A DNA stretch of 58,313 nt from positions 1-58,313 of the forward strand of contig JBDROZ010000082.1 of NCBI GenBank assembly GCA_043809585.1, written 5' to 3'. A model generated the notes under the pieces. That model saw nothing but the letters and a program-made list of their open reading frames with translations. It did not search any database and was not told the DNA's origin. Below are positions 2,991 to 28,155 of the stretch, one piece after another. Made by a program: the position numbers and the translations under genes. The stretch is from Candidatus Eiseniibacteriota bacterium (GTDB taxonomy: Bacteria; Orphanbacterota; Orphanbacteria; Orphanbacterales; Orphanbacteraceae). The stretch's first letter is position 1. Each line of letters begins with the position of its first letter.

Positions 2991-5579
2991 ATGACCGATC
3001 GTGTAGCCCAACCGGCCGACACGGAGCGGCCTGCCTTCCGAACGCGGAGACGACTTGTCGCGGCACTGCTCGCGTTGGGTTCCACCCTGTTCTTGGCAGA
3101 GTTCGCAGTGCATCAGTTCCTGTCGCTCCTGCCGTTGCGCAACACCTGGAAGATTGCAGCCGACGGTTTCGCGCTGGCAGTCCTGGCCACGCCGATCCTG
3201 TACATGCTCGGGTTTTCCAAGTTCGGGCTGCTCGGCTTGACGGCCATGCGTCGGACCGCGGGGCCCGAAAGACGAATGTGGGTGGCCCTCACAGCCTACA
3301 TCCTCTTGGTGCTGCTGGTCGCGGGTTCGTACCTGATGCTTCACTCCGGGCAACAGGAGAGCGTACGGGTAATCAACTTGGCGAGCAGACAGCGGATGCT
3401 TACACAGCTCATCACCAGGGAGGCGATATTCGAGACCTTGGAACTGGCCCATGCAAGAGTGGCGGGGCGCGAACCTGAAAGGTTGTCGAAACTGGCGGAG
3501 CCCTCGGCCCGGTTTCGCCGGGTGCTCCACGGACTGATCGGAGGCGACTCCGAGCTCGGACGGCCCCCCCCCCCCTCAGACGAGGCAGCTAGGCAATTCA
3601 AGACGGTCGAGGATGCGTGGCACCAACTCTCGGAGCTCGTACAGCAAACCGCCGCGCCTTCAAGTATGAATGAAGCCAGCGCCTACGTCACCGCCATCTC
3701 GAACACCGCCGATCGGCTCGTGGCGGAACTCGACCAGGCGGTCCTGTTCCTGCAGAAGCACTATGAGAACCGTACGAAACAGCTCGATCTCATGCTGGGC
3801 CTCGCCATCATGGCCGCGATCGCCATCGCACTGCTGCTCGCGTTCACCATCGCCCAGGTCTTGAGTTACCGCCAACGGGCAGAAGAATTGCTCGCCGATG
3901 AGGTGCGGCTGGGCCAGTTGCGTGAGAAGGAACTCCTCCGGACCAAGGAGGCAGCAGAGGCCGCCAATAAGGCAAAGAGCGAATTCCTCGCCAACATGAG
4001 CCACGAGATTCGCACGCCCATGAACGGGGTCATGGGGATGGCGGGGCTGCTCGCGGATACCGACCTGACGCAGGAGCAACGCGATTACGTTAATACCATA
4101 CGCTTCTCGGCCGAGGCGCTTCTCACCATCATCAACGATATTCTCGATTTCTCGAAGATGGAGGCCAATGAACTCGATCTCGAGACGCTCGACTTCGACC
4201 TCCGCACCGTGGCCGAGGAACCGATGGACCTTGTAGCGGAGAGCGCTTTGTCGAAAGGCCTCGAGCTTGTTCTCTGGATCGCACCGGGAGTGCCGGAGGC
4301 GGTGTCGGGCGACCCGGGCAGGATTCGGCAAATCCTCCTCAACTACCTCGGCAATGCCGTCAAGTTCACCTCCGAAGGGGAGGTCGTGGTGCGCATCGAA
4401 ACCGTGGAGGAAACCGACGACTCCGCTCTCATCCGATTCGAGGTGCAAGACAGCGGATCCGGTATTCCTACCGAGTCCCAGGTGAAGCTCTTCCAGCCCT
4501 TCTCCCAGGTGGATGGATCCTCGACCCGAGAGCACGGCGGCACCGGCTTGGGACTGATGATTGCCCGGCGACTCGCCGAGCGAATGGGGGGAGAGGTCGG
4601 ATTGGAGAGTGAACCCGGCAAGGGAAGTACCTTCTGGTTCACGGTAAGGGTTGAAAAGAGGGAGCCGTCGCGGCAAAGCGTGCGGGTCATGCCGGTGGTA
4701 GAACTGTCAGGTGTGAGTGTCTTGGTGGTCGATGACAGTCCGACCAATCGGTGTGTGCTCGAGGAGCAACTCAGGGCATGGGGCATGATCGTCGACTCGG
4801 TCGCGGGCGGTCCGGAGGCGATTGAACGTCTCAATCCCGCCCTCGGCACCGCCTCATCCTACCGGCTTGCGCTGCTGGACCACGACATGCCCGGCATGGA
4901 TGGCCTCGAGCTGGCCCGGGAGATCAGGGCCGTCCCGGAGCTGACCGAATTGCCTCTGGTGCTCCTCACTTCGAGCCCGGGGCGAGGGGGCTGCGCGGCC
5001 GCCGAGGAAGTCGGCTTTGTGGCCTGTCTTCGAAAGCCCGTTCACCAAGGAACACTGCGCGACTGCGTTTCCGAGGCGCTTGGGCTTATTACCGCTCAGC
5101 CCCCGAAGCGCCGGGAGACTTTGACTGCCGAGCATACCTTGGCAGAGGATGCCACGCCGCCACGTCCCCGCATTCTTCTTGCAGAGGACAATCCGGTCAA
5201 TCAGAAGCTCGCTTCCCGGCTCTTGAAGAAACTGGACTACCGGGTCGATGCCGTGGCTAACGGCCGGGAGGCTGTAGAAGCCGTTAAGAACATCCCGTAC
5301 GACCTTGTGGTGATGGACTGTCAAATGCCGGAGATGAATGGCTACGTGGCGACGGGGGAGATTCGCCGACTCGAAAACGGCGAACGCCACATTCCGATCA
5401 TCGCCATGACGGCGAATGCCATGAAGGGAGACCGGGAAAAATGCCTCGAGGCCGGGATGGACGACTACTTGAGTAAGCCGGTCAGTTTTAAGGAACTTGC
5501 GGAAGTGCTCCGACGGTGGACTTCGAACACCGAATCTGAGGCAACAGCACCCTTGATAAGAAACTCCATTCGCCGCTGA
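2991..5579 (+). CDS. Hybrid sensor histidine kinase/response regulator with NarX/PilJ-like sensor domain and two REC domains
   Basis: [12 protein letters not shown] (P-box-like); [16 protein letters not shown]-box; N, G1, F, G2 boxes; two receiver domains (LLDHDMP, VMDCQMP). Confidence 0.95.
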
Positions 5580-9919: not shown

Positions 9920-10043
9920 ACCTGACGCCCGGCACCAGCTGAGCCGCGAAGCGTGCGCGCAACGTTGGCTTCACCTGCGGGCGTGGCCGGCGCAGGCCAG
10001 AAGCGTGACAGACTCGACCGGGCCGTGCAAGCGCTTGTTATAA
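9920..10043 (-). other. attC site (composite: one full attC plus an extra right arm)
   Basis: Minus strand TTATAACAAGCGCTTGCAC...GCAGGTGAAGCCAAC GTTGCGC, then GCTTCGCGGCTCAGCTGGTGCCGGGC GTCAGGT. Confidence 0.7.
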
Positions 10044-10072: not shown

Positions 10073-10996
10073 CTATGCGCCCGAATACAGCGCCGTGCTC
10101 AGGTACTTCATCCCCGAATCCACGGCCACTGTAACCACTGTGTCGTCGGGTCCGAGACGTTCGGCGACCCGCAGCGCCACCGCCACATTTCCTCCCGTGG
10201 AAGTGCCTGCGAAGATGCCTTCCTGCCGGGCAAGGCGCCGGGCGGTCGCCATCGCTTCCTCGGTCGATATCGTCTGGATCTCGCTCGCGAGTGTTTCGGT
10301 CCACAACGGCACGATGAACCCGGCGCCGGTGCCTTCGATCTTGTGAGACCCGCTCGGTCCGCCCGACAACACGGCCGACTCCTCGGGCTCTACCGCGACG
10401 ATGTGCACCGCTTCGTCGTGGACTCGAAGACGTGTGGAGATCCCCCGCAACGACCCGGCGGTGCCGACGCTCTGGACGAAGGCGCCGACCCGCCCGCCGG
10501 TCTGCTCCCATATCTCCTCGCCCATCCGCTCGTAGCTCGACAGCTGATCCGTATTGTTCAGCTGATCCGTCCAGTAGCTGCCGGGCGCGGAAGCGAGTCT
10601 TCTCGCGGTCTCGATCATCTCGAGAGTCAGGGCCTTCGTCGTCCCGCCGGTCGGACTCTCGACAAGCGTGAGGCGTGCGCCCAGCGCCGTCATGTGGACC
10701 CGTTTTTCCTCGCTGAATGCCTCCGATGTCACGATCTGAAGAGGGATGCGCTTCGCGGCGCACACGAAGGCGAGCGACACGCCCGTGCTTCCCCCCGTGT
10801 ACTCGACCACCGAACCGCCCGGCCGCAATCGTCCATCCGCCTCGGCCGCCTCGACCATCGCGAGCGCCATCCGGTCCTTCATGCTCCCCGTCGGATTTTC
10901 GTATTCCAGCTTGACGAGAACCCTGGCACTCGACTCAGGAACCATATGCCTCAGTGGAACGAGACTCGTCCGGCCGATGGTGTCGAGCACCGTCAC
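10073..10996 (-). CDS. Cysteine synthase family PLP enzyme (cassette)
   Basis: TIGRTSLV, KLEYENPTGSMKDR (PLP lysine), HKIEGTGAGF, EGIFAGTSTG, DSGMKYLST; GTG start at 10996 with AAGGGAG RBS. Confidence 0.92.
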   Translation of the reverse strand: MTVLDTIGRTSLVPLRHMVPESSARVLVKLEYENPTGSMKDRMALAMVEAAEADGRLRPGGSVVEYTGGSTGVSLAFVCAAKRIPLQIVTSEAFSEEKRVHMTALGARLTLVESPTGGTTKALTLEMIETARRLASAPGSYWTDQLNNTDQLSSYERMGEEIWEQTGGRVGAFVQSVGTAGSLRGISTRLRVHDEAVHIVAVEPEESAVLSGGPSGSHKIEGTGAGFIVPLWTETLASEIQTISTEEAMATARRLARQEGIFAGTSTGGNVAVALRVAERLGPDDTVVTVAVDSGMKYLSTALYSGA

Positions 10997-11021
10997 CCTC
11001 TGTTCTCCCTTCCTGCGATGA

Positions 11022-11900
11022 TCACCGGCTCCGGGTCGGTTGGACCAAGAGGTCCCCGGGGGATGTCTTCCACATGTTGGCCTGACAAGAAAGCGGCCAC
11101 GTGACAACCGAGCCCGTCGGCCCCACACGCCAGACAGACTGTTCGCGGTCATCTTTCGAAGGCCGTTTCGGACTCTCTTGGAATACCTCCCATTCATCGG
11201 GAATGAGGACGACCGTTTCGGGAGTAGGATCTGCGATCCCCATGTTATCCACGGCTCGCACGCTGAACATCCAGTACACGGCAATCTCGGGCCCGAGGAC
11301 AAACACGCTCTCGGCAACGACAACCGAAAACCAGCCGCTTTGTACGAAGTCGACCTCGGTTTGGATGTCGTAGTGGTCGATCGAGCCGTCGGGATCCCAC
11401 CCAAACCAATACATCCTGAAGGCGTAGTTCCCGTTTGTGTCGCTCTCAGCCGGATTGAAGCTGAGCGCCGTCTCAGGAGGTATATTGGGGGAAGCCAGGG
11501 TGAACGCGTTGATGGCCGTGTATGTTGTACCGGCTCGGCTGTAGGCCCTGCATTGGAACAGATACTCCCTATCGAACTCCGCATCGGGCAGCGCCAGAGT
11601 GACGCCCACACACCCGTAGCCATCTCCTGCGCTCACCGATCCGCTCGCATGTGCCAGCACCAGCGTCGTGTCGTAGAGACAGTCGCAGAGCGTCGGAAGC
11701 CCTCGCGGGTCAACCTCGAAGCTGACGGCTACGCCAGAGCCGTCGTCCCAGACCGACGCGGGCGGGAAGATGACAGGCGGCTGCCCGCTCTCGGGGCAAT
11801 TGCAGCTGGTATCGCCGCAGCCACCCACGACCATCCCTAGAGAAATCAAACAGACTACGATGCAGCCGACGATCACCGGTGTTCCGATCTTGTAGCGCAT
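11022..11900 (-). CDS. Secreted/lipoprotein with beta-sandwich (FN3-like) domains
   Basis: Hydrophobic leader ending VVGGC; NIPPET...WFGWDPDGSIDHY...FSVRAVDNMGIADPTP motif. Confidence 0.65.
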   Translation of the reverse strand: MRYKIGTPVIVGCIVVCLISLGMVVGGCGDTSCNCPESGQPPVIFPPASVWDDGSGVAVSFEVDPRGLPTLCDCLYDTTLVLAHASGSVSAGDGYGCVGVTLALPDAEFDREYLFQCRAYSRAGTTYTAINAFTLASPNIPPETALSFNPAESDTNGNYAFRMYWFGWDPDGSIDHYDIQTEVDFVQSGWFSVVVAESVFVLGPEIAVYWMFSVRAVDNMGIADPTPETVVLIPDEWEVFQESPKRPSKDDREQSVWRVGPTGSVVTWPLSCQANMWKTSPGDLLVQPTRSR

Positions 11901-11980
11901 AGACTCCCCTTCCCTCTCCTACCAAGTGGTCCAGCGCCGCTTATCTGCGCGCGCCGACGAGCATCAAGTCCAACGGTTCC

Positions 11981-12910
11981 TTATTCCCTCGGCTTCCTGA
12001 CGGGGCGCTCCTGCTGGACCACGCGCGAGACTCCAGTGGCCACATCGTACCAAAACGGCGCTCCGAGCCCCGCCAGCACTCCTGTGATTATGATGCCCAC
12101 CACCCACATTGCCCAGCCACCGATGTTGTTCCTCCGCTGGAAGTCCTTGGATTCCCCTTCCTGAAACCCAGAGTGCGGAAAGTAGGACCAGCCTATGAGC
12201 AGGTCCAAGCTCGAGAGCGCGTCGAGATCCTCTTGGCTGTCCCTCCAGGCCTGCTCGAGATCTTCCTTGGTGATCGGAGAATTGCCATTCTCCTCGTCAA
12301 GGGACGCAACCAATGCGTGATAATTCTCAGCGAAAGCCTCACTCTGCGCAATCACGCCTTGGCGCATGGCTTCGTTCCTGATGTATGAATCCGCGATGCG
12401 AACACCATCCATGTTGAACGCGACCGCGAGGAGGAGCGCCACGACGGTGGCCCATCGCCTCGAGTACTTTCGAAACGATTCCGTGAACCTATCCCCAACG
12501 ATTTCGTAACGTCGTCCCAGTTCATCGAAGACGCCGCGGGCTTCGTCGCCAAGTTCTGTCAGCATCTCCTGACCTAAGCCAGACCGTTTCAGCCGCTCCG
12601 TGAGCTCGTCGGTCGACACACTGACAAGCGTGGCCAGTTCATCTCCGCCAAAGAGTTCGGACTCACTGAGATTATTGGCTGTTGTCGTTAGTTTGTCGGC
12701 GACCCCGTCAGTCAATTTCCTCTTGAGCCTATTCACTTCCCGCTCGATGACCGGCCGGGCTTCCTTATCGAAATACTCCGTCAACATCTTTTGCAGCTCC
12801 GCGTTGCGCAGCTTGGCCGTATTCCGCAGGAGACGAACGATCTGTGTGACGACCGTGGCTACCACGAGCATCGTCAGGGCAAATGCGAGGGCTGCATCGA
12901 GAATAGGCAT
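11981..12910 (-). CDS. Hypothetical membrane protein (N-terminal TM, helical middle, C-terminal TMs with GLGAPFWYD)
   Basis: Long ORF, GGAGG RBS before MPILDAA, three hydrophobic segments. Confidence 0.8.
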   Translation of the reverse strand: MPILDAALAFALTMLVVATVVTQIVRLLRNTAKLRNAELQKMLTEYFDKEARPVIEREVNRLKRKLTDGVADKLTTTANNLSESELFGGDELATLVSVSTDELTERLKRSGLGQEMLTELGDEARGVFDELGRRYEIVGDRFTESFRKYSRRWATVVALLLAVAFNMDGVRIADSYIRNEAMRQGVIAQSEAFAENYHALVASLDEENGNSPITKEDLEQAWRDSQEDLDALSSLDLLIGWSYFPHSGFQEGESKDFQRRNNIGGWAMWVVGIIITGVLAGLGAPFWYDVATGVSRVVQQERPVRKPRE

Positions 12911-13080
12911 GGCGACCTCCAATTCCGATGGAAGGCATCCGAATCCGGGCAGTGCTTTCTGCTTGCGCCTCCTTGTTGCTCCAGAGGATCAACCTCGATC
13001 TTGCAGAAACCTCGGCCCTGATTTCGGTGGGCGGGACCCAGGGGGTCAGGGCCGACTTGCTCAAACAGTCTCCGCGCGCC

Positions 13081-13410
13081 TCACAGGATCTTGATTGCGT
13101 CAAACACCTTGTCTACGACGGCAAGGAACTTCCCGACGGCCTTGACCAGGTCCTTCACCTTTTCGATGTCCTTGATCGCCTGGTCCAGGTCGGCGCCGGC
13201 ATCGAGGACCGTTCCGATCCGCTTGTCGACATTCGCCGTCGTCTCTTTGAACAGCAGGCGCCCGGCCATCATCACGCGAAAACTCAGCTCTTCCATCTCC
13301 CGAAGAACATCCTCTGCCTCTTCTTGATCTTTCGTCTTGCCGAGGCGCTTCGCGAGGCCCTGATGGGCTTCGATCAGCTGCTTGTGAAGCTTCTTGACTT
13401 CTGAGTTCAT
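13081..13410 (-). CDS. Small alpha-helical/coiled-coil hypothetical protein
   Basis: GGAGGT RBS; ATGA overlap with the upstream gene; amphipathic C-terminal helix. Confidence 0.8.
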   Translation of the reverse strand: MNSEVKKLHKQLIEAHQGLAKRLGKTKDQEEAEDVLREMEELSFRVMMAGRLLFKETTANVDKRIGTVLDAGADLDQAIKDIEKVKDLVKAVGKFLAVVDKVFDAIKIL

Positions 13411-14318
13411 TGTGTACCTCCGCTGGTCGAGCCTCCCGCACGGCGGTCGCGAAAGAGTTTCGCCTGTTCTCGGTAGGCTTTGTACTCGTCCTGAACGAGC
13501 TGAATCAGAGCCGCCGCGGACACCCGGCGGCCTTGGGCAAGCTCCCGATGCGCGTTTGCCAGGGCCGCAAGTGAGACACCAACCGAGCCAAGCTGCCGGT
13601 CCTGCATGTCCCGCTCGTCCAGCGCGTCAACGTAGCGAAGCACCGCAGCATGCTTGGCGTCGATGCTCGAGGCGAGACGGAAGTCCGTGGCGTCGATCTT
13701 CCCCAACACGTTTGTCCAATACGTCCTCACGGTGCCTCTCACCCCGAAAGAACTGTCGCCGACTGCCTCGACCATTGCGCGGAAGACTTCTTGTATGGCG
13801 GGGTCTGCCTTGCGGATCACTTCGAGGGCGTCCCGCTCTGCCCGGAGATTGACCAAGAACCCGCCTAACTTCATGAAAGCGGCGGATATTCCGGCCGGAA
13901 GCTGTTCCCCGCGCGAGGCTTCGATCCTTTCACCGAGAGCCGAAAGCTCCCCTTCGACGCCGGAGCGTTGCTCTTGGTCGAGCAGCCGCTCGAGCTTTTC
14001 TGCATAGGAATCGATGAGGACGAACGCCCGGTGCCACTTCGTAATATCGTCCGATGCAAGACCTTCGAAGAACAGCTCCTCCGTCAGGGCATCCTGTTTG
14101 ACCGCCCGCTCGATCTGCCGGCGGCGCAGGAAGCTGTTGGCGTCCGCAAATGCGGCCGACGACTGCTGGTCCACCAGTAGAACGCCCTGGCGGAACGGTG
14201 CGATCACGTCCCTCGACGGGGCCGTAGCACAGCCGGCGACGGCGAGTAGTGCGACGCCGAGCAGAAGAGTGATCAGGCCGCTGCCCGCTATCCTACGGAG
14301 TTTCTCGCTCGTCGTCAT
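13407..14318 (-). CDS. Alpha-helical lipoprotein, hypothetical
   Basis: Lipobox LAVAGC after a hydrophobic leader; GGAGGT RBS. Confidence 0.8.
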   Translation of the reverse strand: MTTSEKLRRIAGSGLITLLLGVALLAVAGCATAPSRDVIAPFRQGVLLVDQQSSAAFADANSFLRRRQIERAVKQDALTEELFFEGLASDDITKWHRAFVLIDSYAEKLERLLDQEQRSGVEGELSALGERIEASRGEQLPAGISAAFMKLGGFLVNLRAERDALEVIRKADPAIQEVFRAMVEAVGDSSFGVRGTVRTYWTNVLGKIDATDFRLASSIDAKHAAVLRYVDALDERDMQDRQLGSVGVSLAALANAHRELAQGRRVSAAALIQLVQDEYKAYREQAKLFRDRRAGGSTSGGTQ

Positions 14319-14347: not shown

Positions 14348-14467
14348 GCCGAACGCCTCGCGTATCGGCCTGAGGCGAAGGGTGGTGCGGGGGGTGCCGG
14401 CGCGAAGCGCCCTCCTCGCGGCCCAGGTGACACTTCAGCTATAGCCGCCTGGATACGCTAGTTAGAC
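14348..14467 (-). other. attC site
   Basis: Minus strand GTCTAAC TAGCGTATCCAGGC...GGCCGATACGCGAGGC GTTCGGC; GCGTATC/GATACGC arms. Confidence 0.82.
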
Positions 14468-14523: not shown

Positions 14524-16098
14524 CTATGATTTCGGAGAGACACCGACCCCTTGGCACGCTTCCCTGAATCGTCTGTTATGCCCGATAACGACAGGGTACT
14601 CTGCGGTCCGGTCGTAGACGCAAAACTCCCAATCGCCCTCGTTGAGCCCTTCTTGGCACCGCGAGATAATCCCGTCCATGGAGTCATTCGTGCACCCAAT
14701 CCAGAGCGACAGCGGATGCTCCCGTATGAAATCCTGCCAAGACTCTGCGCGATCGAAGATGAAGTGGCACTTTCCGACCTCCACGGGACAGTCGATCTTC
14801 GAATCGTGCATGAATACGATCGTGGGTGCCTTCACTCTGTAGAGGCACCGTTTGAACAGCTTGTTGCTGTAGCTCCCAACATGAAAGCCCCGACAACTCT
14901 GAAGGTCTCCAAGCACCCTCTGGTCCTCCGAATACGGCCGCTTCGTCTCGGGCTTCATCGCTTGGATCTCTTCACCAAGCTGAAGGCCCGACATTGCAGC
15001 GAGAATCAGGGTGTCCTGTGGCGTGGACTCGTCTCCAAACACTTGAGACACAACATCGTCTATCATGGCCTCGGCATCGGGGTCAGACTCAGCCAGAGGT
15101 CGGAGGCTATAGTCCGGAGGGCGATTGCGATTGGTGAGGGGACCATACATGCCTGCGTACTTCTCGTCCGGCGGTCCCTCTGGAGCCGGATGGCACATGA
15201 CTCCGGAACACAGCCACAGGTAGATATGTGCTAGTGCGTTGTTGGTAAGCACAGATGGTCGAGGGCGGTGATCGAGAGACTCTGCTCTAGTAGGCAGCCT
15301 CTGGGCAAGGAGCAAGCTCACGTGAAATAGCGTGCTGCCCGATTCGATAAAGATCCTCTCGTACTTCTCTTGGATGTCGGCACCGTGTACCTCCTCGAAG
15401 GCAGCGGCCAGCGCCTCCTTCTTACTCTTGTCCGTCGATAGTCGTCCCTCAACGGTCTTGAACTCACCCAGCTTGCTGACGATGTCCCTCAGTCCCTGGT
15501 GCTTCGCGTAGACCCTCAGCACGTCACTGGTCTGCATGTCCTGTTCGAGGATGTATCCGGGTACGTCGTGCCGCTTGCTGAAGAAGCCGTAGAGCCAACG
15601 GTCTATCTGCGCGCTCGAGGTGAAAGGGACACAGTAGGGCTGATCTGAGTGGTCTTCGAAGCGCTTGCGAAGGTTCCAGTACAGGTCTTCATTGCTAAGC
15701 TCCGCAGCCTCTTTAGGACCAGAGAGCTTCTCGCGCTCGGCCCTCGCCTCATCTGCGTCCAACAGGAACGCGATTATGGGCAATCCGCATTCCTGCGCCC
15801 ACGCAAGCTCGATCTCAACGTAGCCCAGCCCCGCCTGGCCGTCCTTATCGAGGGGTCTCGTCCCGTAGCGGTGACCGATGATCAAAACGAAGTACTGGGA
15901 TGACTTAACCGCCCGACGGATGACCGTTTCCTTGTCCTTGGTGTCCGGAGCGTAATTCTCCAAGCACACCGGCAGGTGTCCGGCATCGATGACGGCTCGA
16001 GCTGCCGCGCGTCTATGTTCCCAAAGATCGCGGAAGGTACTGCTTATGAAGACTTGGTACTTCCTGTCGACTTCAGGGCGCTCGCCACCGATCTCCAT
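14524..16098 (-). CDS. DUF4062 domain protein fused to a DeoR C-terminal sensor-like domain (cassette)
   Basis: KYQVFISSTFRDLWEHR...YFVLIIGHRYG...YVEIELAWA (DUF4062); later IFIESGSTL...SVLTNNALAH resembles DeoRC IFLDSGTT...VTNSL. Confidence 0.75.
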   Translation of the reverse strand: MEIGGERPEVDRKYQVFISSTFRDLWEHRRAAARAVIDAGHLPVCLENYAPDTKDKETVIRRAVKSSQYFVLIIGHRYGTRPLDKDGQAGLGYVEIELAWAQECGLPIIAFLLDADEARAEREKLSGPKEAAELSNEDLYWNLRKRFEDHSDQPYCVPFTSSAQIDRWLYGFFSKRHDVPGYILEQDMQTSDVLRVYAKHQGLRDIVSKLGEFKTVEGRLSTDKSKKEALAAAFEEVHGADIQEKYERIFIESGSTLFHVSLLLAQRLPTRAESLDHRPRPSVLTNNALAHIYLWLCSGVMCHPAPEGPPDEKYAGMYGPLTNRNRPPDYSLRPLAESDPDAEAMIDDVVSQVFGDESTPQDTLILAAMSGLQLGEEIQAMKPETKRPYSEDQRVLGDLQSCRGFHVGSYSNKLFKRCLYRVKAPTIVFMHDSKIDCPVEVGKCHFIFDRAESWQDFIREHPLSLWIGCTNDSMDGIISRCQEGLNEGDWEFCVYDRTAEYPVVIGHNRRFREACQGVGVSPKS

Positions 16099-16140
16099 GG
16101 CCGACTCTCCCTTCATCTAGTGCATGCCTCGGTCGGCGCA

Positions 16141-17692: not shown

Positions 17693-17790
17693 TCCCAACG
17701 GCTTGCAGTTCACCCGCAGCCGCCACCTTCCAATCGAACGCCACTTGTCTGAGCGGGGTGGCGGCTGGCGGGTGCAACTGCTAGTTAGAG
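17693..17790 (-). other. attC site
   Basis: Minus strand CTCTAAC TAGCAGTTGCACCCGCCAGCCGCCACC...GGTGGCGGCTGCGGGTGAACTGCAAGCC GTTGGGA; long stem with extrahelical bases. Confidence 0.9.
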
Positions 17791-18592: not shown

Positions 18593-18646
18593 CTCTAACG
18601 CTCAGCATCAGCTGCGGCGCGAAGCGTCGTCAGCTGCATGCTGTTG
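18593..18646 (-). other. attC site, main part (split by IS; remainder at 20292-20299)
   Basis: Removing the IS restores CTCTAAC GCTCAGCATCAGCTGCGGCGCGAAGCGTCGTCAGCTGCATGCTGTT GTTCGGC (+ strand), a short classical attC. Confidence 0.9.
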
Positions 18647-18733
18647 ATACTCATCAAGGCCCCCTGGGGCCTACCCCGATTTCGGGGTAGGCTGGTGGTG
18701 TCCAGTATCCACCCAACCCAGGAGGTGAAAACC

Positions 18734-19777
18734 ATGAGATTCTACACCGGACAACACCAACACTACTGCGGTGTCGATCTACACGCCCGATCGATCTACG
18801 TCTGTGTTCTCGATCGGGAGGGGAACACGGTGTTGCACCGGAACTTGTGTGCCAACCCCGATGTCTTCCTTCACGCCGTCCGGCCCTTCTCGGATGATCT
18901 CGTCGTCGGCGCTGAGTGCATGTTCACCTGGTACTGGCTGGCCGACCTCTGCCGGGACGCCGGGATCCCCTTCGTCCTGGGACACGCCCTCTACATGAAG
19001 GCGATCCACGGCGCCAAGGCCAAGAACGACCGCATCGACTCGGCCAAGATCGCCGCACTCCTCAAGGGCGGGACCTTCCCGGTCGCCTATGTCTACCCCC
19101 GGGAGTGGCGATCCACACGAGACCTCCTCCGAAGGAGGCTCCACCTCGTCCGAAAGCGCGGCGAGCTCGTCGCCCACATCCAGAACACCTACCACCAGCA
19201 GAACCTCCCCGCCCCCTCCGCCAAGCTGCGCTACCGCGCCAACCGCGCCGGCGTCGCCGACGTCTTCCCCGACCGCAGCGTCCAGAAGAACGTCGCCGTC
19301 GACCTCGCGGTTGCCGACCGGCTCGACCAGGTCATCCGCGACCTCGAGTCGTTCTTGACGCGCCGGGTCAAGGTGCACGACCCCGACAACTTCCACCGGT
19401 TGCGATCCATTCCCGGCGTCGGGAAAATCCTGGCCATGACCTTCCTTTACGAAATTCACGACATCGACCGCTTCCCGAGGGTGCAGGACTTCTCCTCCTA
19501 CGCACGCCTCGTGAAATGCGCGCACGAGTCGGGTGGCAGGCGGTCGGGAACCGGCGGGGCCAAGATCGGGAACGCCCACCTCCGCTGGGCCTTCGGCGAA
19601 GCGGTCCTTCTGATGCTGAGGGAGAGCGAGGAGCTCAAGAAACGGCGCCGTCGCCTCGAACGGAAACACGGAAAGGGGAAGTCGCTCGCCATTCTCGCTC
19701 ACAAGCTCGGGCGGGCAGTCTACTTCATGATGAAACGGAAGAGGGTTTTTCAGATGGAACGCTTTCTGGCGGCTTGA
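18734..19777 (+). CDS. IS110-family DEDD transposase/recombinase
   Basis: GVDLH, GAE, KNDRID catalytic residues; SIPGVG; HESGG; GNAHLRWA; ILAHKLGR; AGGAGGT RBS. Confidence 0.95.
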   Translation: MRFYTGQHQHYCGVDLHARSIYVCVLDREGNTVLHRNLCANPDVFLHAVRPFSDDLVVGAECMFTWYWLADLCRDAGIPFVLGHALYMKAIHGAKAKNDRIDSAKIAALLKGGTFPVAYVYPREWRSTRDLLRRRLHLVRKRGELVAHIQNTYHQQNLPAPSAKLRYRANRAGVADVFPDRSVQKNVAVDLAVADRLDQVIRDLESFLTRRVKVHDPDNFHRLRSIPGVGKILAMTFLYEIHDIDRFPRVQDFSSYARLVKCAHESGGRRSGTGGAKIGNAHLRWAFGEAVLLMLRESEELKKRRRRLERKHGKGKSLAILAHKLGRAVYFMMKRKRVFQMERFLAA

Positions 19778-21506: not shown

Positions 21507-21878
21507 TCATGGCTCCCGATCCAAAGGGCTGCGCGCTCCACGGCCGCCCCGGTTGAGGACGTGCGTGTAGACTATGGTTGTGCTCGCATCTCGATACCCG
21601 AGCAGTTCTTGGATCGTACGGATGTCGTTGCCCGCTTCCAGCAGATGAGTCGCGGAGGAGTGCCTGAATGCATGGCAAGTCGCCCCGATGTGCGCCTCCT
21701 CCGTTCGCGGACTATAGTGGCGCGCACGGATCACGTCGCGGACCTCGTCGAAGAGGCGGGGTTTGGGGAAGGGAGATCGATCCTCGCGGACGAAGGAGGT
21801 CGGCGGAAGCACTGGATAAGGTGGGGTTGGGTAAGCGGTTACTGTCGAAGAGGTCGCGATCATCTCAGCTCCCCCCAC
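21507..21878 (-). pseudogene. intI: Integron integrase with a large in-frame internal deletion
   Basis: N-terminal [24 protein letters not shown] joined directly to C-terminal [55 protein letters not shown]. Confidence 0.9.
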
Positions 21879-22868: not shown

Positions 22869-22940
22869 TTATGAAATCGGCGGGAAGGCGGGACGGAGGA
22901 GGTCCGCACTCCGGTTCTCTCCCCTCCCCTCCTCTCCGGA

Positions 22941-23120
22941 GGCCCGGGGCCGCGGGGTCGGGCCGTAGCGAGGCTCGGGAGCGTGCGGCGAGAGGACTGT
23001 TCGGACGAGCCGCCACCCGCAATCGTAGCCTTAGCTACGATGAGGATGGCGGCGACGGAGAACTGTTCTCGCAGCCCACGATCCCGGGCCGCAGTAGGCC
23101 CGACCCCGCGGTCACGGGCC
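22941..23120 (-). repeat. Fold-back repeat, copy 2
   Basis: Outer IR GGCCCGGGGCCGCGGGGTCGGGCC / GGCCCGACCCCGCGGTCACGGGCC; core GGACGAGCCGCCACCCGCAATCGTAGCCTTAGCTACGATGAGGATGGCGGCGACGGA. Confidence 0.8.
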
Positions 23121-24619
23121 TAAGCGTCCATGTCCGTCCACTTCTTCGCCATCTGGCTGAAGATGACGAGGGCGACGATCGCCCCGACGCCGATGGCGGC
23201 GAAGGGGAGCCAGACATGGTACTGGGGCGAGTAGGTGTTCCAGAGGAGCTGCGTCACCTCCACGGCGTCCTTGCCGGTGAGCTCTTGGAGCCTCACGAAC
23301 GCTTCGGTCCGGGGGACGCCGGTCACGGCTTCCAGGGACTTGATCTTGCCGTCCCAGGCGGCCGCGCCGGGGATGAGGCCGTTCTCGGCCATGTACTTCA
23401 GCGCGAGCGTCGCCTTCTCTCCGTAGTGTCCGTAAAGGTAGCCCGCCATCTTGGAGCCGACAAAACCGCCGATCCCGACGGGGATGTTCACGTAACCGAG
23501 GAAGAGGGCCTTCTTGCCGGGGGGCGCGATCAGCCCGAGGTATTCATTCTTCTTCGGCCCCGTCATCATCTCGCCCGTCGAGAAGAAGACGATGCCGAGA
23601 AGGAGCACCCAGCCGAAGCCGGTCATCCCCGCGATGAGCACGCCTCCCGTGGCGATGGCCATCCCGATCACCATGCACTGGAGCACCCGCATCCGCCGCA
23701 CCAGCCACGACAGAGGCACCATGAAGGCGATGATGAAGATGGCGTTCAAATTGAGCAGAATCTGCTGCGGCACCATGACGCCGCGGCTCGTCTCCACCCT
23801 CCACTGGTCGAAGGGGAGGATTCGCGCGACCGGGGAACTGTCGACCCAATCCTCGATGAAGTTCGGGTGCAGATCCCACAGCTGGTACATCATGAGCCAG
23901 AAGCAGGCCATGATGAGGAGCCAGGCGACGAGCCGCGGCTCGACGATGTTCTTCATGGTGCGAAGGAAAACGGCTCCGGGACTCTCCGTCTTGTCCGCCC
24001 CCGACTGCACGTCCTTGAACGTGAAGAGCATGATGTAGTTCAGCGCCGTCACCATCGCCGAGGCGGTGAACAGATTCCGCCACGTCCCTTGGGTGTGCGG
24101 ATCGCCGAGGATCGCCGTCGCGAGAAACGGGCCGATCGCCGCGCCGATGTTCACGACCCAGTAGAAGATCCCCCACCCGACCGACGAGTTCTTCTTCGTC
24201 AGGTTCTGGGCGAGCGACCCCTGCAGCGCCGGCTTGAAGAGCGCCGTCCCGCTCGCGAGCACGATGACGCCCGCGAAGAACCCGAAGTAGGTCCGGAGGT
24301 TCGCCATCATCAGATAGCCGATGATGTTCATCGTCACCGACACGAAGAGCGTCTTCTTGTATCCGTAACGGTCCGCGTACCCGCCGGTGAAGGTCGGCAG
24401 GATCGACTGGAAGATGAACCACCAGGCGTAGATCGTCCCCTTCATGGCCGCCGTGAAGTGGAGGCCGCCCGGATCGTCCGCCTGCATGATGTAGACCGGC
24501 ACCACCGCCCGGACGCTGAAATAGGCGAGACGCTCGAACATCTCGATCGAGTTCAGCAGCCAGTAGGTTCGGCCGAAGGTCCGTTTCTTCGTCTCCGTGG
24601 GTGCGTTCGCGTCGCTCAC
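23120..24619 (-). CDS. MFS transporter, POT/peptide-transporter-like
   Basis: EMFERLAYF (ExxER motif), GGYADRYG, LFKP, FYWVVNIG; GTG start at 24619. Confidence 0.88.
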   Translation of the reverse strand: MSDANAPTETKKRTFGRTYWLLNSIEMFERLAYFSVRAVVPVYIMQADDPGGLHFTAAMKGTIYAWWFIFQSILPTFTGGYADRYGYKKTLFVSVTMNIIGYLMMANLRTYFGFFAGVIVLASGTALFKPALQGSLAQNLTKKNSSVGWGIFYWVVNIGAAIGPFLATAILGDPHTQGTWRNLFTASAMVTALNYIMLFTFKDVQSGADKTESPGAVFLRTMKNIVEPRLVAWLLIMACFWLMMYQLWDLHPNFIEDWVDSSPVARILPFDQWRVETSRGVMVPQQILLNLNAIFIIAFMVPLSWLVRRMRVLQCMVIGMAIATGGVLIAGMTGFGWVLLLGIVFFSTGEMMTGPKKNEYLGLIAPPGKKALFLGYVNIPVGIGGFVGSKMAGYLYGHYGEKATLALKYMAENGLIPGAAAWDGKIKSLEAVTGVPRTEAFVRLQELTGKDAVEVTQLLWNTYSPQYHVWLPFAAIGVGAIVALVIFSQMAKKWTDMDA

Positions 24620-27667: not shown

Positions 27668-27684
27668 GAATCATGTCCTGTCCG

Positions 27685-27968
27685 GTTCCGCTTCCTTCCG
27701 TCCCTTCCGTTCCTCCCGCTCCTTCCGTCCCTTCCCCTTCCTTCCGCTTCCTCCCGTTCCTTCCGCTCCTTTCCGGCGGCCCGGGTCACGGGAGGGGCCA
27801 GGGGGATGACAAATCAGTCTCTCCCCCCTCCGCTCCGTATCTAGCCTGGAGCGGGGACGGGGATCCTCCCGCTTCCTCCCGTCCCTTCCGCTCCTTCCTC
27901 TTCCTTCCGCTTCTTTCCGGTTCCCTTTGGCTTCTTCCGGGTCCTTCCGGGTCCCTCTGTTCCCCTTC
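27685..27968 (+). repeat. Pyrimidine-rich low-complexity tracts (CCTTCCG-like units)
   Basis: Two CT-rich tracts, each followed by GGCCCGGGTCACGGGAGGGG (27778, 27971). Confidence 0.75.
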
Positions 27969-27970
27969 GT

Positions 27971-28155
27971 GGCCCGGGTCACGGGAGGGGTTCGTCGCGA
28001 GGGTTCGGAGCGCGTGGCGAGAAGAAACTCTGGACGAGCCGGCACCCGGAATCGTAGCCGTAGCTACGATGAGGATGCCGGCGAAGGAAGAGTTCCTTCG
28101 CAGCCCGCGATGCGAACCCGCAGCAGAACCCCTCCCGTGATCCGGGCCAGGCTAG
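27971..28155 (-). repeat. Fold-back repeat, copy 3
   Basis: IR GGCCCGGGTCACGGGAGGGGTTC / GAACCCCTCCCGTGATCCGGGCC; same core ATCGTAGCCGTAGCTACGATGAGGATG; ends in CCAGGCTAG. Confidence 0.82.

Follow-up and report, generated by a model that had tools for sequence, protein, structure and literature searches.

Three genes that follow one another in a contig of Candidatus Eiseniibacteriota bacterium (JBDROZ010000082.1 of assembly GCA_043809585.1; the whole stretch of 58,313 nucleotides (nt) that was analysed is referred to as the window) raise the question of whether they work together as one membrane system. The genes, designated A (14318..13407), B (13410..13081), and C (12910..11981), are all located on the minus strand, and an interpretation made earlier from the letters of the DNA, here called the sequence-only reading, regarded them as a single three-gene integron cassette encoding a tripartite envelope complex, such as a multi-component alpha-pore former or a phage-defence system. 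In the present study, we arrived at a different view: the locus rather probably contains two unrelated units in a decayed integron array, the pair AB and gene C, and not a three-part system. Judging from their sequences, A and B form a conserved pair of genes whose translation is coupled, and we are highly confident that this pair and C are separate units.

Gene A encodes an all-helical lipoprotein of 303 amino acids (aa), gene B a helical protein of 109 aa without a signal peptide, and gene C a membrane protein of 309 aa with three hydrophobic segments; the families of A and C have no Pfam model. For C, we adopted the ATG used by its homologues (309 aa) in place of the upstream TTG in the list of open reading frames (313 aa). 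As the sequence-only reading had pointed out, the three genes are co-oriented, each carries the ribosome-binding site GGAGG, located 6-8 nt ahead of the ATG, and the stop codon of A overlaps the start codon of B in ATGA. Homologues at E<=0.001, with the window's own protein counted, numbered 192 for C, 34 for A, and 41 for B, and the conservation of these many homologues indicates that all three are real genes. Searches of A, B, and C against Pfam, NCBIfam, and PADLOC returned noise only, and no literature search was made on the three families.

Occurrence of gene C and of the A-B pair

An alignment-based scan of 185,579 species genomes for C yielded 40 loci distributed over many phyla, the taxa including Planctomycetota, Acidobacteriota, Limisphaerales, Anaerolineales, Rhodothermales, Gammaproteobacteria, and Bradyrhizobium. 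Neither A nor B was found near C at any of these 40 loci (tblastn E<=0.01, flanks of approximately 6 kb), the neighbours of C being variable, mutually unrelated, and mostly housekeeping genes, and no A-family gene was detected anywhere in three whole genomes that carry C. In the opposite direction, C was not found downstream of AB in any of 10 metagenome loci, and no match to C was present among 72,556 plasmid records, including the AB-bearing plasmid pPAES01. The size of the longest contig was also informative, in that ten matches to A and ten matches to B shared identical longest-contig sizes, while no such size was common to a match to A and a listed match to C, except for the window itself. 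The sequence-only reading had proposed that conservation of the trio as a neighbourhood be examined and had accepted that homologues failing to co-occur would speak against its proposal; A and B are kept together, C homologues do not co-occur with them, and a tripartite complex is thus not supported.

The pairing of A with B is, on the other hand, consistent. A scan of metagenome contigs with the A alignment revealed B directly downstream of A at each of the 10 loci obtained, usually with an overlap of 4 nt, the B copy of one locus being cut by the end of the contig. The arrangement recurs in pPAES01, a conjugative plasmid of Prosthecochloris aestuarii, in which a lipoprotein 28% identical to A is followed 14 nt on by a protein of 114 aa that is 32% identical to B (hhalign probabilities of 99.6% and 99.3%, respectively).

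AB is a rare, patchily distributed cargo of mobile elements. Both A and C are absent from nine other Eisenbacteria genomes, and searches for A in 401 Myxococcota genomes and 400 genomes from the class of G011, with five candidates scored per genome and one genome left unscored, came back empty. Viral contigs contained no relative of A or C, a phage collection contained no relative of A, and pPAES01 was the sole carrier of A in the plasmid collection. The settings of AB are mobile or accessory and comprise the integron array of the window, the conjugative plasmid, an island (locus L042) in which AB is preceded by a tyrosine integrase gene and a Gp49/HTH (HigB-like toxin) pair, a locus encoding a CI-type repressor, and a run of co-oriented genes (locus L048, 64-8413). 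This run encodes an MBL-fold protein (LmuA/Avs1a-like in PADLOC), a C-like protein of 288 aa, a C1 peptidase, a protein with GH46 and PG_binding_1 domains, A, B, and a Zn-dependent phospholipase C (PLC)-like protein, and is the sole locus besides the window to hold both AB and a C-family gene. On pPAES01 (L054, 2186-9007), a gene of 415 aa is located 9 nt upstream of AB and is preceded by thermonuclease-family and Schlafen/AlbA_2-HATPase_c_4 genes, and AB is followed by a radical-SAM maturase of Nif11-type peptides and its precursor; the 415-aa gene has no relative in the other AB loci.

Regarding C itself, its hydrophobic segments cover residues of approximately 1-29, 154-173, and 262-288, and not only the N- and C-terminal transmembrane (TM) segments that had been proposed; the motif GLGAPFWYD, which had been taken for the end of the protein, occupies residues 281-289 of 309. 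The family has two conserved motifs: NxD, which is invariant and closes the second hydrophobic segment, and AGLGAPFWYD, of which AGLGAPFW is located in the third. An AlphaFold2 (AF2) model of C had a predicted local distance difference test score (pLDDT) of 80 and a predicted template-modelling score (pTM) of 0.65, and its fold returned no Foldseek match in the PDB at E<=0.001 and a best Z of 7.0 in a wide VIA-align search. The ESM Atlas yielded unnamed clusters only, in one of which, a structural neighbour of C, 40% of the members carry PG_binding_1. C is most likely a stand-alone inner-membrane protein that acts as a homo-oligomer, and its large, uncharacterised family is of interest as a broad three-TM family spread over many phyla, marked by NxD and AGLGAPFWYD, with no model in Pfam, NCBIfam, or PADLOC and no solved relative.

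The A-B pair and its predicted complex

The N-terminus of A has a signal peptide with the lipobox LAVAGC that the sequence-only reading had recognised, and its Cys30 is invariant in 27/27 aligned sequences. Among the full-length distant relatives of A that were listed, 95/120 possess a lipobox-like motif by a strict pattern, and most of the other 25 printed N-termini show a Cys-containing box by eye. Among 1.84 billion representatives, a profile search with A retrieved at least 304 clusters (50% identity), whose members nearly all measure 280-330 aa. The lipobox suggests lipid anchoring, and A should accordingly be exported and held either at the outer face of the cytoplasmic membrane or in the outer membrane. 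The AF2 model of A had a pLDDT of 77 and a pTM of 0.74. The description of B as a 109-aa helical protein with an amphipathic tail was also borne out, in that B is all-helical and its C-terminal residues 85-102 form an amphipathic segment with a hydrophobic moment of 0.61.

Complex predictions for mature A (residues 31-303) together with B gave model scores of 0.82, 0.82, and 0.80 (best of three controls, 0.00), with a partner pLDDT of at least 79 and an agreement of contacts between runs of at least 78%; in the calibration, the mark was reached by 116/157 solved complexes and by 2/215 mismatched pairs. The predicted interface places residues 1-56 of B, an N-terminal hairpin, on residues 64-95, 141-145, and 181-215 of A, and it holds or adjoins the most conserved columns of both families, namely the most conserved stretch of B and several invariant columns of A. 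The lack of a predicted interaction had been named in the sequence-only reading as an outcome that would count against its complex, and for A and B an interaction was predicted. From these models, A and B probably bind each other.

A possible course of events may be outlined as follows. A would be made with a Sec/lipoprotein signal, cleaved at the invariant Cys, and lipid-anchored, while B would be translated by coupling from the overlapping ATGA. The N-terminal hairpin of B (1-56) would pack into a conserved groove of A, its C-terminal amphipathic helix would remain free, and the lipoprotein A might keep the membrane-seeking small protein B inactive. C would have been put beside AB by cassette traffic or by the loss of an intervening attC. 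By analogy, we tentatively suggest, as the likeliest single role, that AB could be a pair of binder and neutraliser of the effector-immunity or toxin-antidote type, an assignment to which we give clearly less weight than to the binding itself; the rest of the weight is shared by the alternatives considered below and by further roles.

The known systems closest to AB are presumably effector-immunity or toxin-antidote pairs that include a lipoprotein as the immunity partner, for example Tse/Tsi-type pairs of the Type VI secretion system (T6SS) and the lantibiotic protein NisI. As in such systems, A and B are adjacent, co-oriented, kept as a pair down to approximately 30% identity, predicted to bind, and found on mobile DNA, and they combine an exported lipoprotein (A) with a small protein without a signal peptide (B). 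Conserved adjacency together with direct binding, a trait of these pairs, is seen for A and B at 10/10 metagenome loci and on one plasmid, with the binding predicted in silico. AB differs from them in that it has no sequence or fold relation to them, the lipoprotein gene comes first, and the host lacks a T6SS sheath gene: PF05943 (VipB/TssC) was not found in the genome to which the window belongs (G000, 97.5% complete) or in pPAES01. The AB pair and the C family are of familiar kinds, namely a binding gene pair and cassette or island cargo of unknown function.

Several points weigh against this view of the locus. The predicted complex is a model score and was built on our own alignments. Since the lipobox of A is invariant and B lacks a signal peptide, the two proteins are expected on opposite sides of a membrane. 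No toxic domain is recognisable in AB, the host has no T6SS sheath gene with which to deliver B, and a toxin or antidote role for AB would follow from analogy alone. With respect to the separation of C, a C-family gene lies within 3 kb in 2/11 AB loci, namely the window and L048, in the latter of which the distant C-like gene of 288 aa is located 2.2 kb upstream of A; this frequency exceeds chance for two rare families, and could stem from a loose link or simply from a common pool of island cargo. The survey of C neighbours leaves out the closest relatives of C (P0002-P0011, 65-72% identity), and the three genes may be co-transcribed in the window because no terminator or promoter was seen from B to C.

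The question of compartments bears on the pair itself. B has neither a signal peptide nor an earlier in-frame start, and a twin-arginine motif is not conserved in the 27-sequence alignment of A; taken together with the lipobox of A, these features imply that A and B should reside in different compartments. Export of B by hitch-hiking with A on the twin-arginine translocation (Tat) route was considered and rejected because the motif is not conserved in A. AB thus represents a rare two-gene mobile module with a confident prediction of binding, yet with partners that their sequences assign to different compartments, and a solution to this paradox could reveal either that a leaderless helical protein is exported by a hitherto unrecognised route or that the two are a new pair of the toxin-immunity type.

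Alternative explanations

Among the other explanations, the one that survives best gives AB the role of a conserved core, with the co-oriented gene that follows B as a swappable effector directed at the membrane, a place taken by C in the window, where the three genes would cooperate. The gene after B is known in seven independent AB contexts, and is a co-oriented gene for a protein directed at membranes or lipids in four of them: C in the window; a 176-aa protein with four TM segments in L042-L045, kept even though the upstream genes differ; a 135-aa protein with three TM segments in L047; and the Zn-dependent PLC-like protein in L048. Lipase-like alpha/beta hydrolases, which are encoded immediately ahead of A in both L044 and L049, and the C-like gene 2.2 kb upstream in L048, fit the same idea. 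The three other contexts do not, the gene after B being an AbrB-like gene beyond a gap of 575 nt in L049, a gene on the opposite strand in L051, and the radical-SAM maturase in pPAES01. Membrane proteins make up roughly a quarter of bacterial genes, and since they are common among accessory genes, three or four contexts out of seven are not significant. Furthermore, the gaps of 88-250 nt after B differ from the ATGA overlap of A and B, and C homologues occur without AB in 40/40 loci. We consider cooperation of this kind in the window to be unlikely. In its general form, a modular version of the tripartite proposal of the sequence-only reading, AB would be the core of an undescribed mobile envelope module, in which A holds the leaderless amphipathic B at or across the membrane and the swappable effector after B (C, another multi-TM protein, or a PLC-like protein) completes, for example, an abortive-infection or exclusion device, which is slightly less probable still.

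The proposal of a single tripartite envelope complex built from A, B, and C, for example a multi-component alpha-pore-forming toxin like those of the ClyA/Ahl/Hbl/Xax group or a defence system of three genes, now appears very improbable. The genes are co-oriented and close to one another, each has its own ribosome-binding site, the scans of the intervals between them gave no attC, terminator, or promoter, all three proteins are helical, two are located in the envelope, and A aligns weakly to AhlB and MakB; however, C does not co-occur with AB, and the structural likeness is not specific. In the wide VIA-align search with A, the best rows were designed helical bundles at Z 10-11, with a maximum of 10.7. 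AhlB followed at Z 8.0 (root-mean-square deviation of 3.9 over 163 residues) and MakB at Z 7.5, scores that tie with G-protein-coupled receptors and designed bundles and are below the bar of approximately 13 that the tool sets for helical bundles; ClyA-, Ahl-, and Xax-type toxins were not among the top 50. In Foldseek searches of the PDB, A had no match at E<=0.001, its best ClyA-family rows reaching E 0.21-0.49 with template-modelling (TM) scores of 0.12-0.27, and ClyA itself E 0.21 with a TM score of 0.15. Profile searches of PDB sequences (A1, A2, and A3) returned designed helical proteins and chance rows only. On its modelled structure, the likeness of A to alpha-pore formers is that of a long helical bundle and nothing more, and the suggestion of a multi-component pore former gains no specific support from it.

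A is comparable to the ClyA-family toxins (ClyA, AhlB/AhlC, MakB, and SmhA) in being an elongated soluble helical bundle of approximately 270 residues. It differs from them in that the short turn formed by residues 187-191, being polar and located at the predicted interface with B, is not a hydrophobic tongue, and in that A is a lipoprotein whose partner genes are not paralogues. The related, similar-sized, and co-conserved components that characterise the Ahl, Smh, Hbl, Nhe, and Xax toxins were not found here, A, B, and C falling into separate BLAST clusters; B, with its 109 aa, is presumably far smaller than any ClyA/Ahl/Hbl/Xax toxin component. The suggested role in phage defence fared no better, since no PADLOC family was matched at E<0.001: A had no row at all, and the best rows for B and C were a JetC coiled-coil match (E 0.0041) and PD-Lambda-5_A (E 0.021), respectively. 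The proposed three-part membrane system is not borne out, and effort on a false lead is thereby spared.

The weakest alternative, which we consider highly improbable, makes A a lipoprotein of the periplasm that assists, or gives immunity to, a secreted lipase or hydrolase encoded nearby, much as lipase-specific foldases or T6SS immunity proteins do, with B as an accessory adaptor. In its favour are the alpha/beta-hydrolase genes immediately ahead of A in L044 (DUF900) and L049 and, in L048, the PLC-like gene directly downstream and the GH46 and PG-binding gene upstream. Against it are the lack of a flanking hydrolase in the window, L042, L047, and pPAES01, the lack of a lipase-chaperone family for A in a Pfam scan at E<=1, the lack of VipB/TssC in the genome, and the fact that the partner strongly conserved with A is B and not a hydrolase.

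The integron array and neighbouring sequences

The preferred reading, a conserved pair beside an unrelated gene, places both in an array of cassettes, and the locus of A, B, and C is indeed a decayed integron array. A remnant of an integron-integrase gene, encoding an internally deleted tyrosine recombinase, is located at 21878..21507 (minus); it matches TIGR02249 at E 8.7e-28 with 97.6 bits against a cut-off of 265, covering the last 56 positions of this model and positions 127-169 only of PF00589. Downstream of the remnant and on the same strand is a row of co-oriented small genes, broken by an IS110-family transposase gene. In the remnant itself, an N-terminal piece is fused directly to the last 56 residues, and the cassette-like array runs on the same strand as, and downstream of, the integrase remnant, while most integrons are divergent.

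attC sites were sought by a strict scan for RYYYAAC...GTTRRRY and by a relaxed scan for folding AAC...GTT segments; the latter also scores coding regions and supports just three intergenic sites. The strict scan of the whole window found a single pair, located within a coding region at 3006-3080. Of the intergenic sites of the relaxed scan, all on the minus strand, the attC-like element upstream of A (14467..14348) extends from GTCTAAC to GTTCGGC with -22.3 kcal/mol over 120 nt, the best attC-like hairpin of the array (17790..17693) extends from CTCTAAC to GTTGGGA with -29.6 kcal/mol over 98 nt, and the third is a hairpin of 57 nt at 18649..18593. The decamer TCTAACTAGC opens both of the former two and has no third copy in the 4.24-Mb genome. 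The 98-nt hairpin is also unique in the genome; it is therefore not a dispersed repeat, and its interpretation as a repetitive extragenic palindromic (REP)-like repeat was rejected.

The element at 14467..14348 stands between A and the DUF4062 gene upstream, and is probably the 5' boundary of a cassette that starts with A. The sequence-only reading had the genes enter at an R' box at 14348-14354; the attC-like element, the shared decamer, and the integrase remnant agree with an entry at this site, while the box itself, GTTCGGC, deviates from GTTRRRY at position 4. The B-C spacer (12911..13080, minus) comprises 170 nt and contains a 10-bp GC-rich stem (GGCCCTGA.../...TCAGGGCC) and the ribosome-binding site of C. 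Neither the strict nor the relaxed scan recognised an attC-like site in it, in agreement with the earlier remark that no attC separates the genes; its RNA fold was no better than those of shuffled sequences (z -0.33), and no terminator-like or promoter-like site was seen in it. There was likewise no attC-like candidate in the 80 nt between the stop codon of C and the next gene (11901-11980). Behind C, a 292-aa gene and a cysK-like gene are tightly packed, and the next attC-like sequence is located at approximately 9925-10010. With no attC-like site after C, a cassette ending after C is not established, and of the proposed single three-gene cassette there remain the 5' attC-like element and the integrase remnant, the latter not intact.

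In its co-oriented array, its attC-like hairpins, its integron-integrase remnant, the lack of a known family, and its absence from sister genomes, the locus resembles integron cassettes of unknown function. It differs from them in that the integrase is a remnant, the boxes are off the RYYYAAC/GTTRRRY consensus, and neither the B-C spacer nor the stretch behind C yielded an attC. Some integron gene cassettes encode phage defence according to two sources (bioRxiv 10.1101/2024.07.02.601719; PMC12614218), which serves here as context and not as evidence for A, B, and C; in contrast to such cassettes, these genes have no PADLOC match and no defence activity found for them.

Other features of the array were also noted. 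The IS110-family transposase gene (18638-19777, plus) abuts the 57-nt attC-like hairpin at 18593-18649 (minus). We take this gene to be, perhaps, an insertion of the IS1111-attC type. A sequence of 33 nt related to the same hairpin recurs at 9922-9954.

Among the neighbouring genes, the upstream DUF4062 gene (14524..16116, minus) encodes 530 aa with an N-terminal DUF4062 domain (Pfam PF13271, E 4.2e-18) and is one of three TIR-like cases near these families. The second is a DUF4062-like N-terminus just after the C homologue of L013 (approximately 3108-3323), and the third is P0273, an A-family member of 411 aa with half a TIR_2 domain fused in front. These cases could be due to chance or to shared island cargo. 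The 292-aa protein behind C (11022-11900, minus) has a hydrophobic, Cys-rich N-terminus and a domain of approximately 100 residues that is common to large proteins of all 10 Eisenbacteria genomes; its gene runs straight into that of the cysK-like pyridoxal phosphate enzyme (10073-11011, minus). In L006, a PALP-domain gene is located directly upstream of the C homologue.

Elsewhere in the window, CT-rich repeats of 9-10 nt occur in eight copies in a 57-nt register at 27673-27940. Two copies of an element of 170 nt, 73% identical, are located at 22940-23121 and 27970-28149, each with inverted repeats of 24-25 nt placed 132 nt apart. These sequences may be members of the REP-like repeats of the genome. 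An AT-rich inverted repeat of 37 nt, 84% complementary and with its arms 119 nt apart, is present at 1119-1311 in an otherwise GC-rich region.

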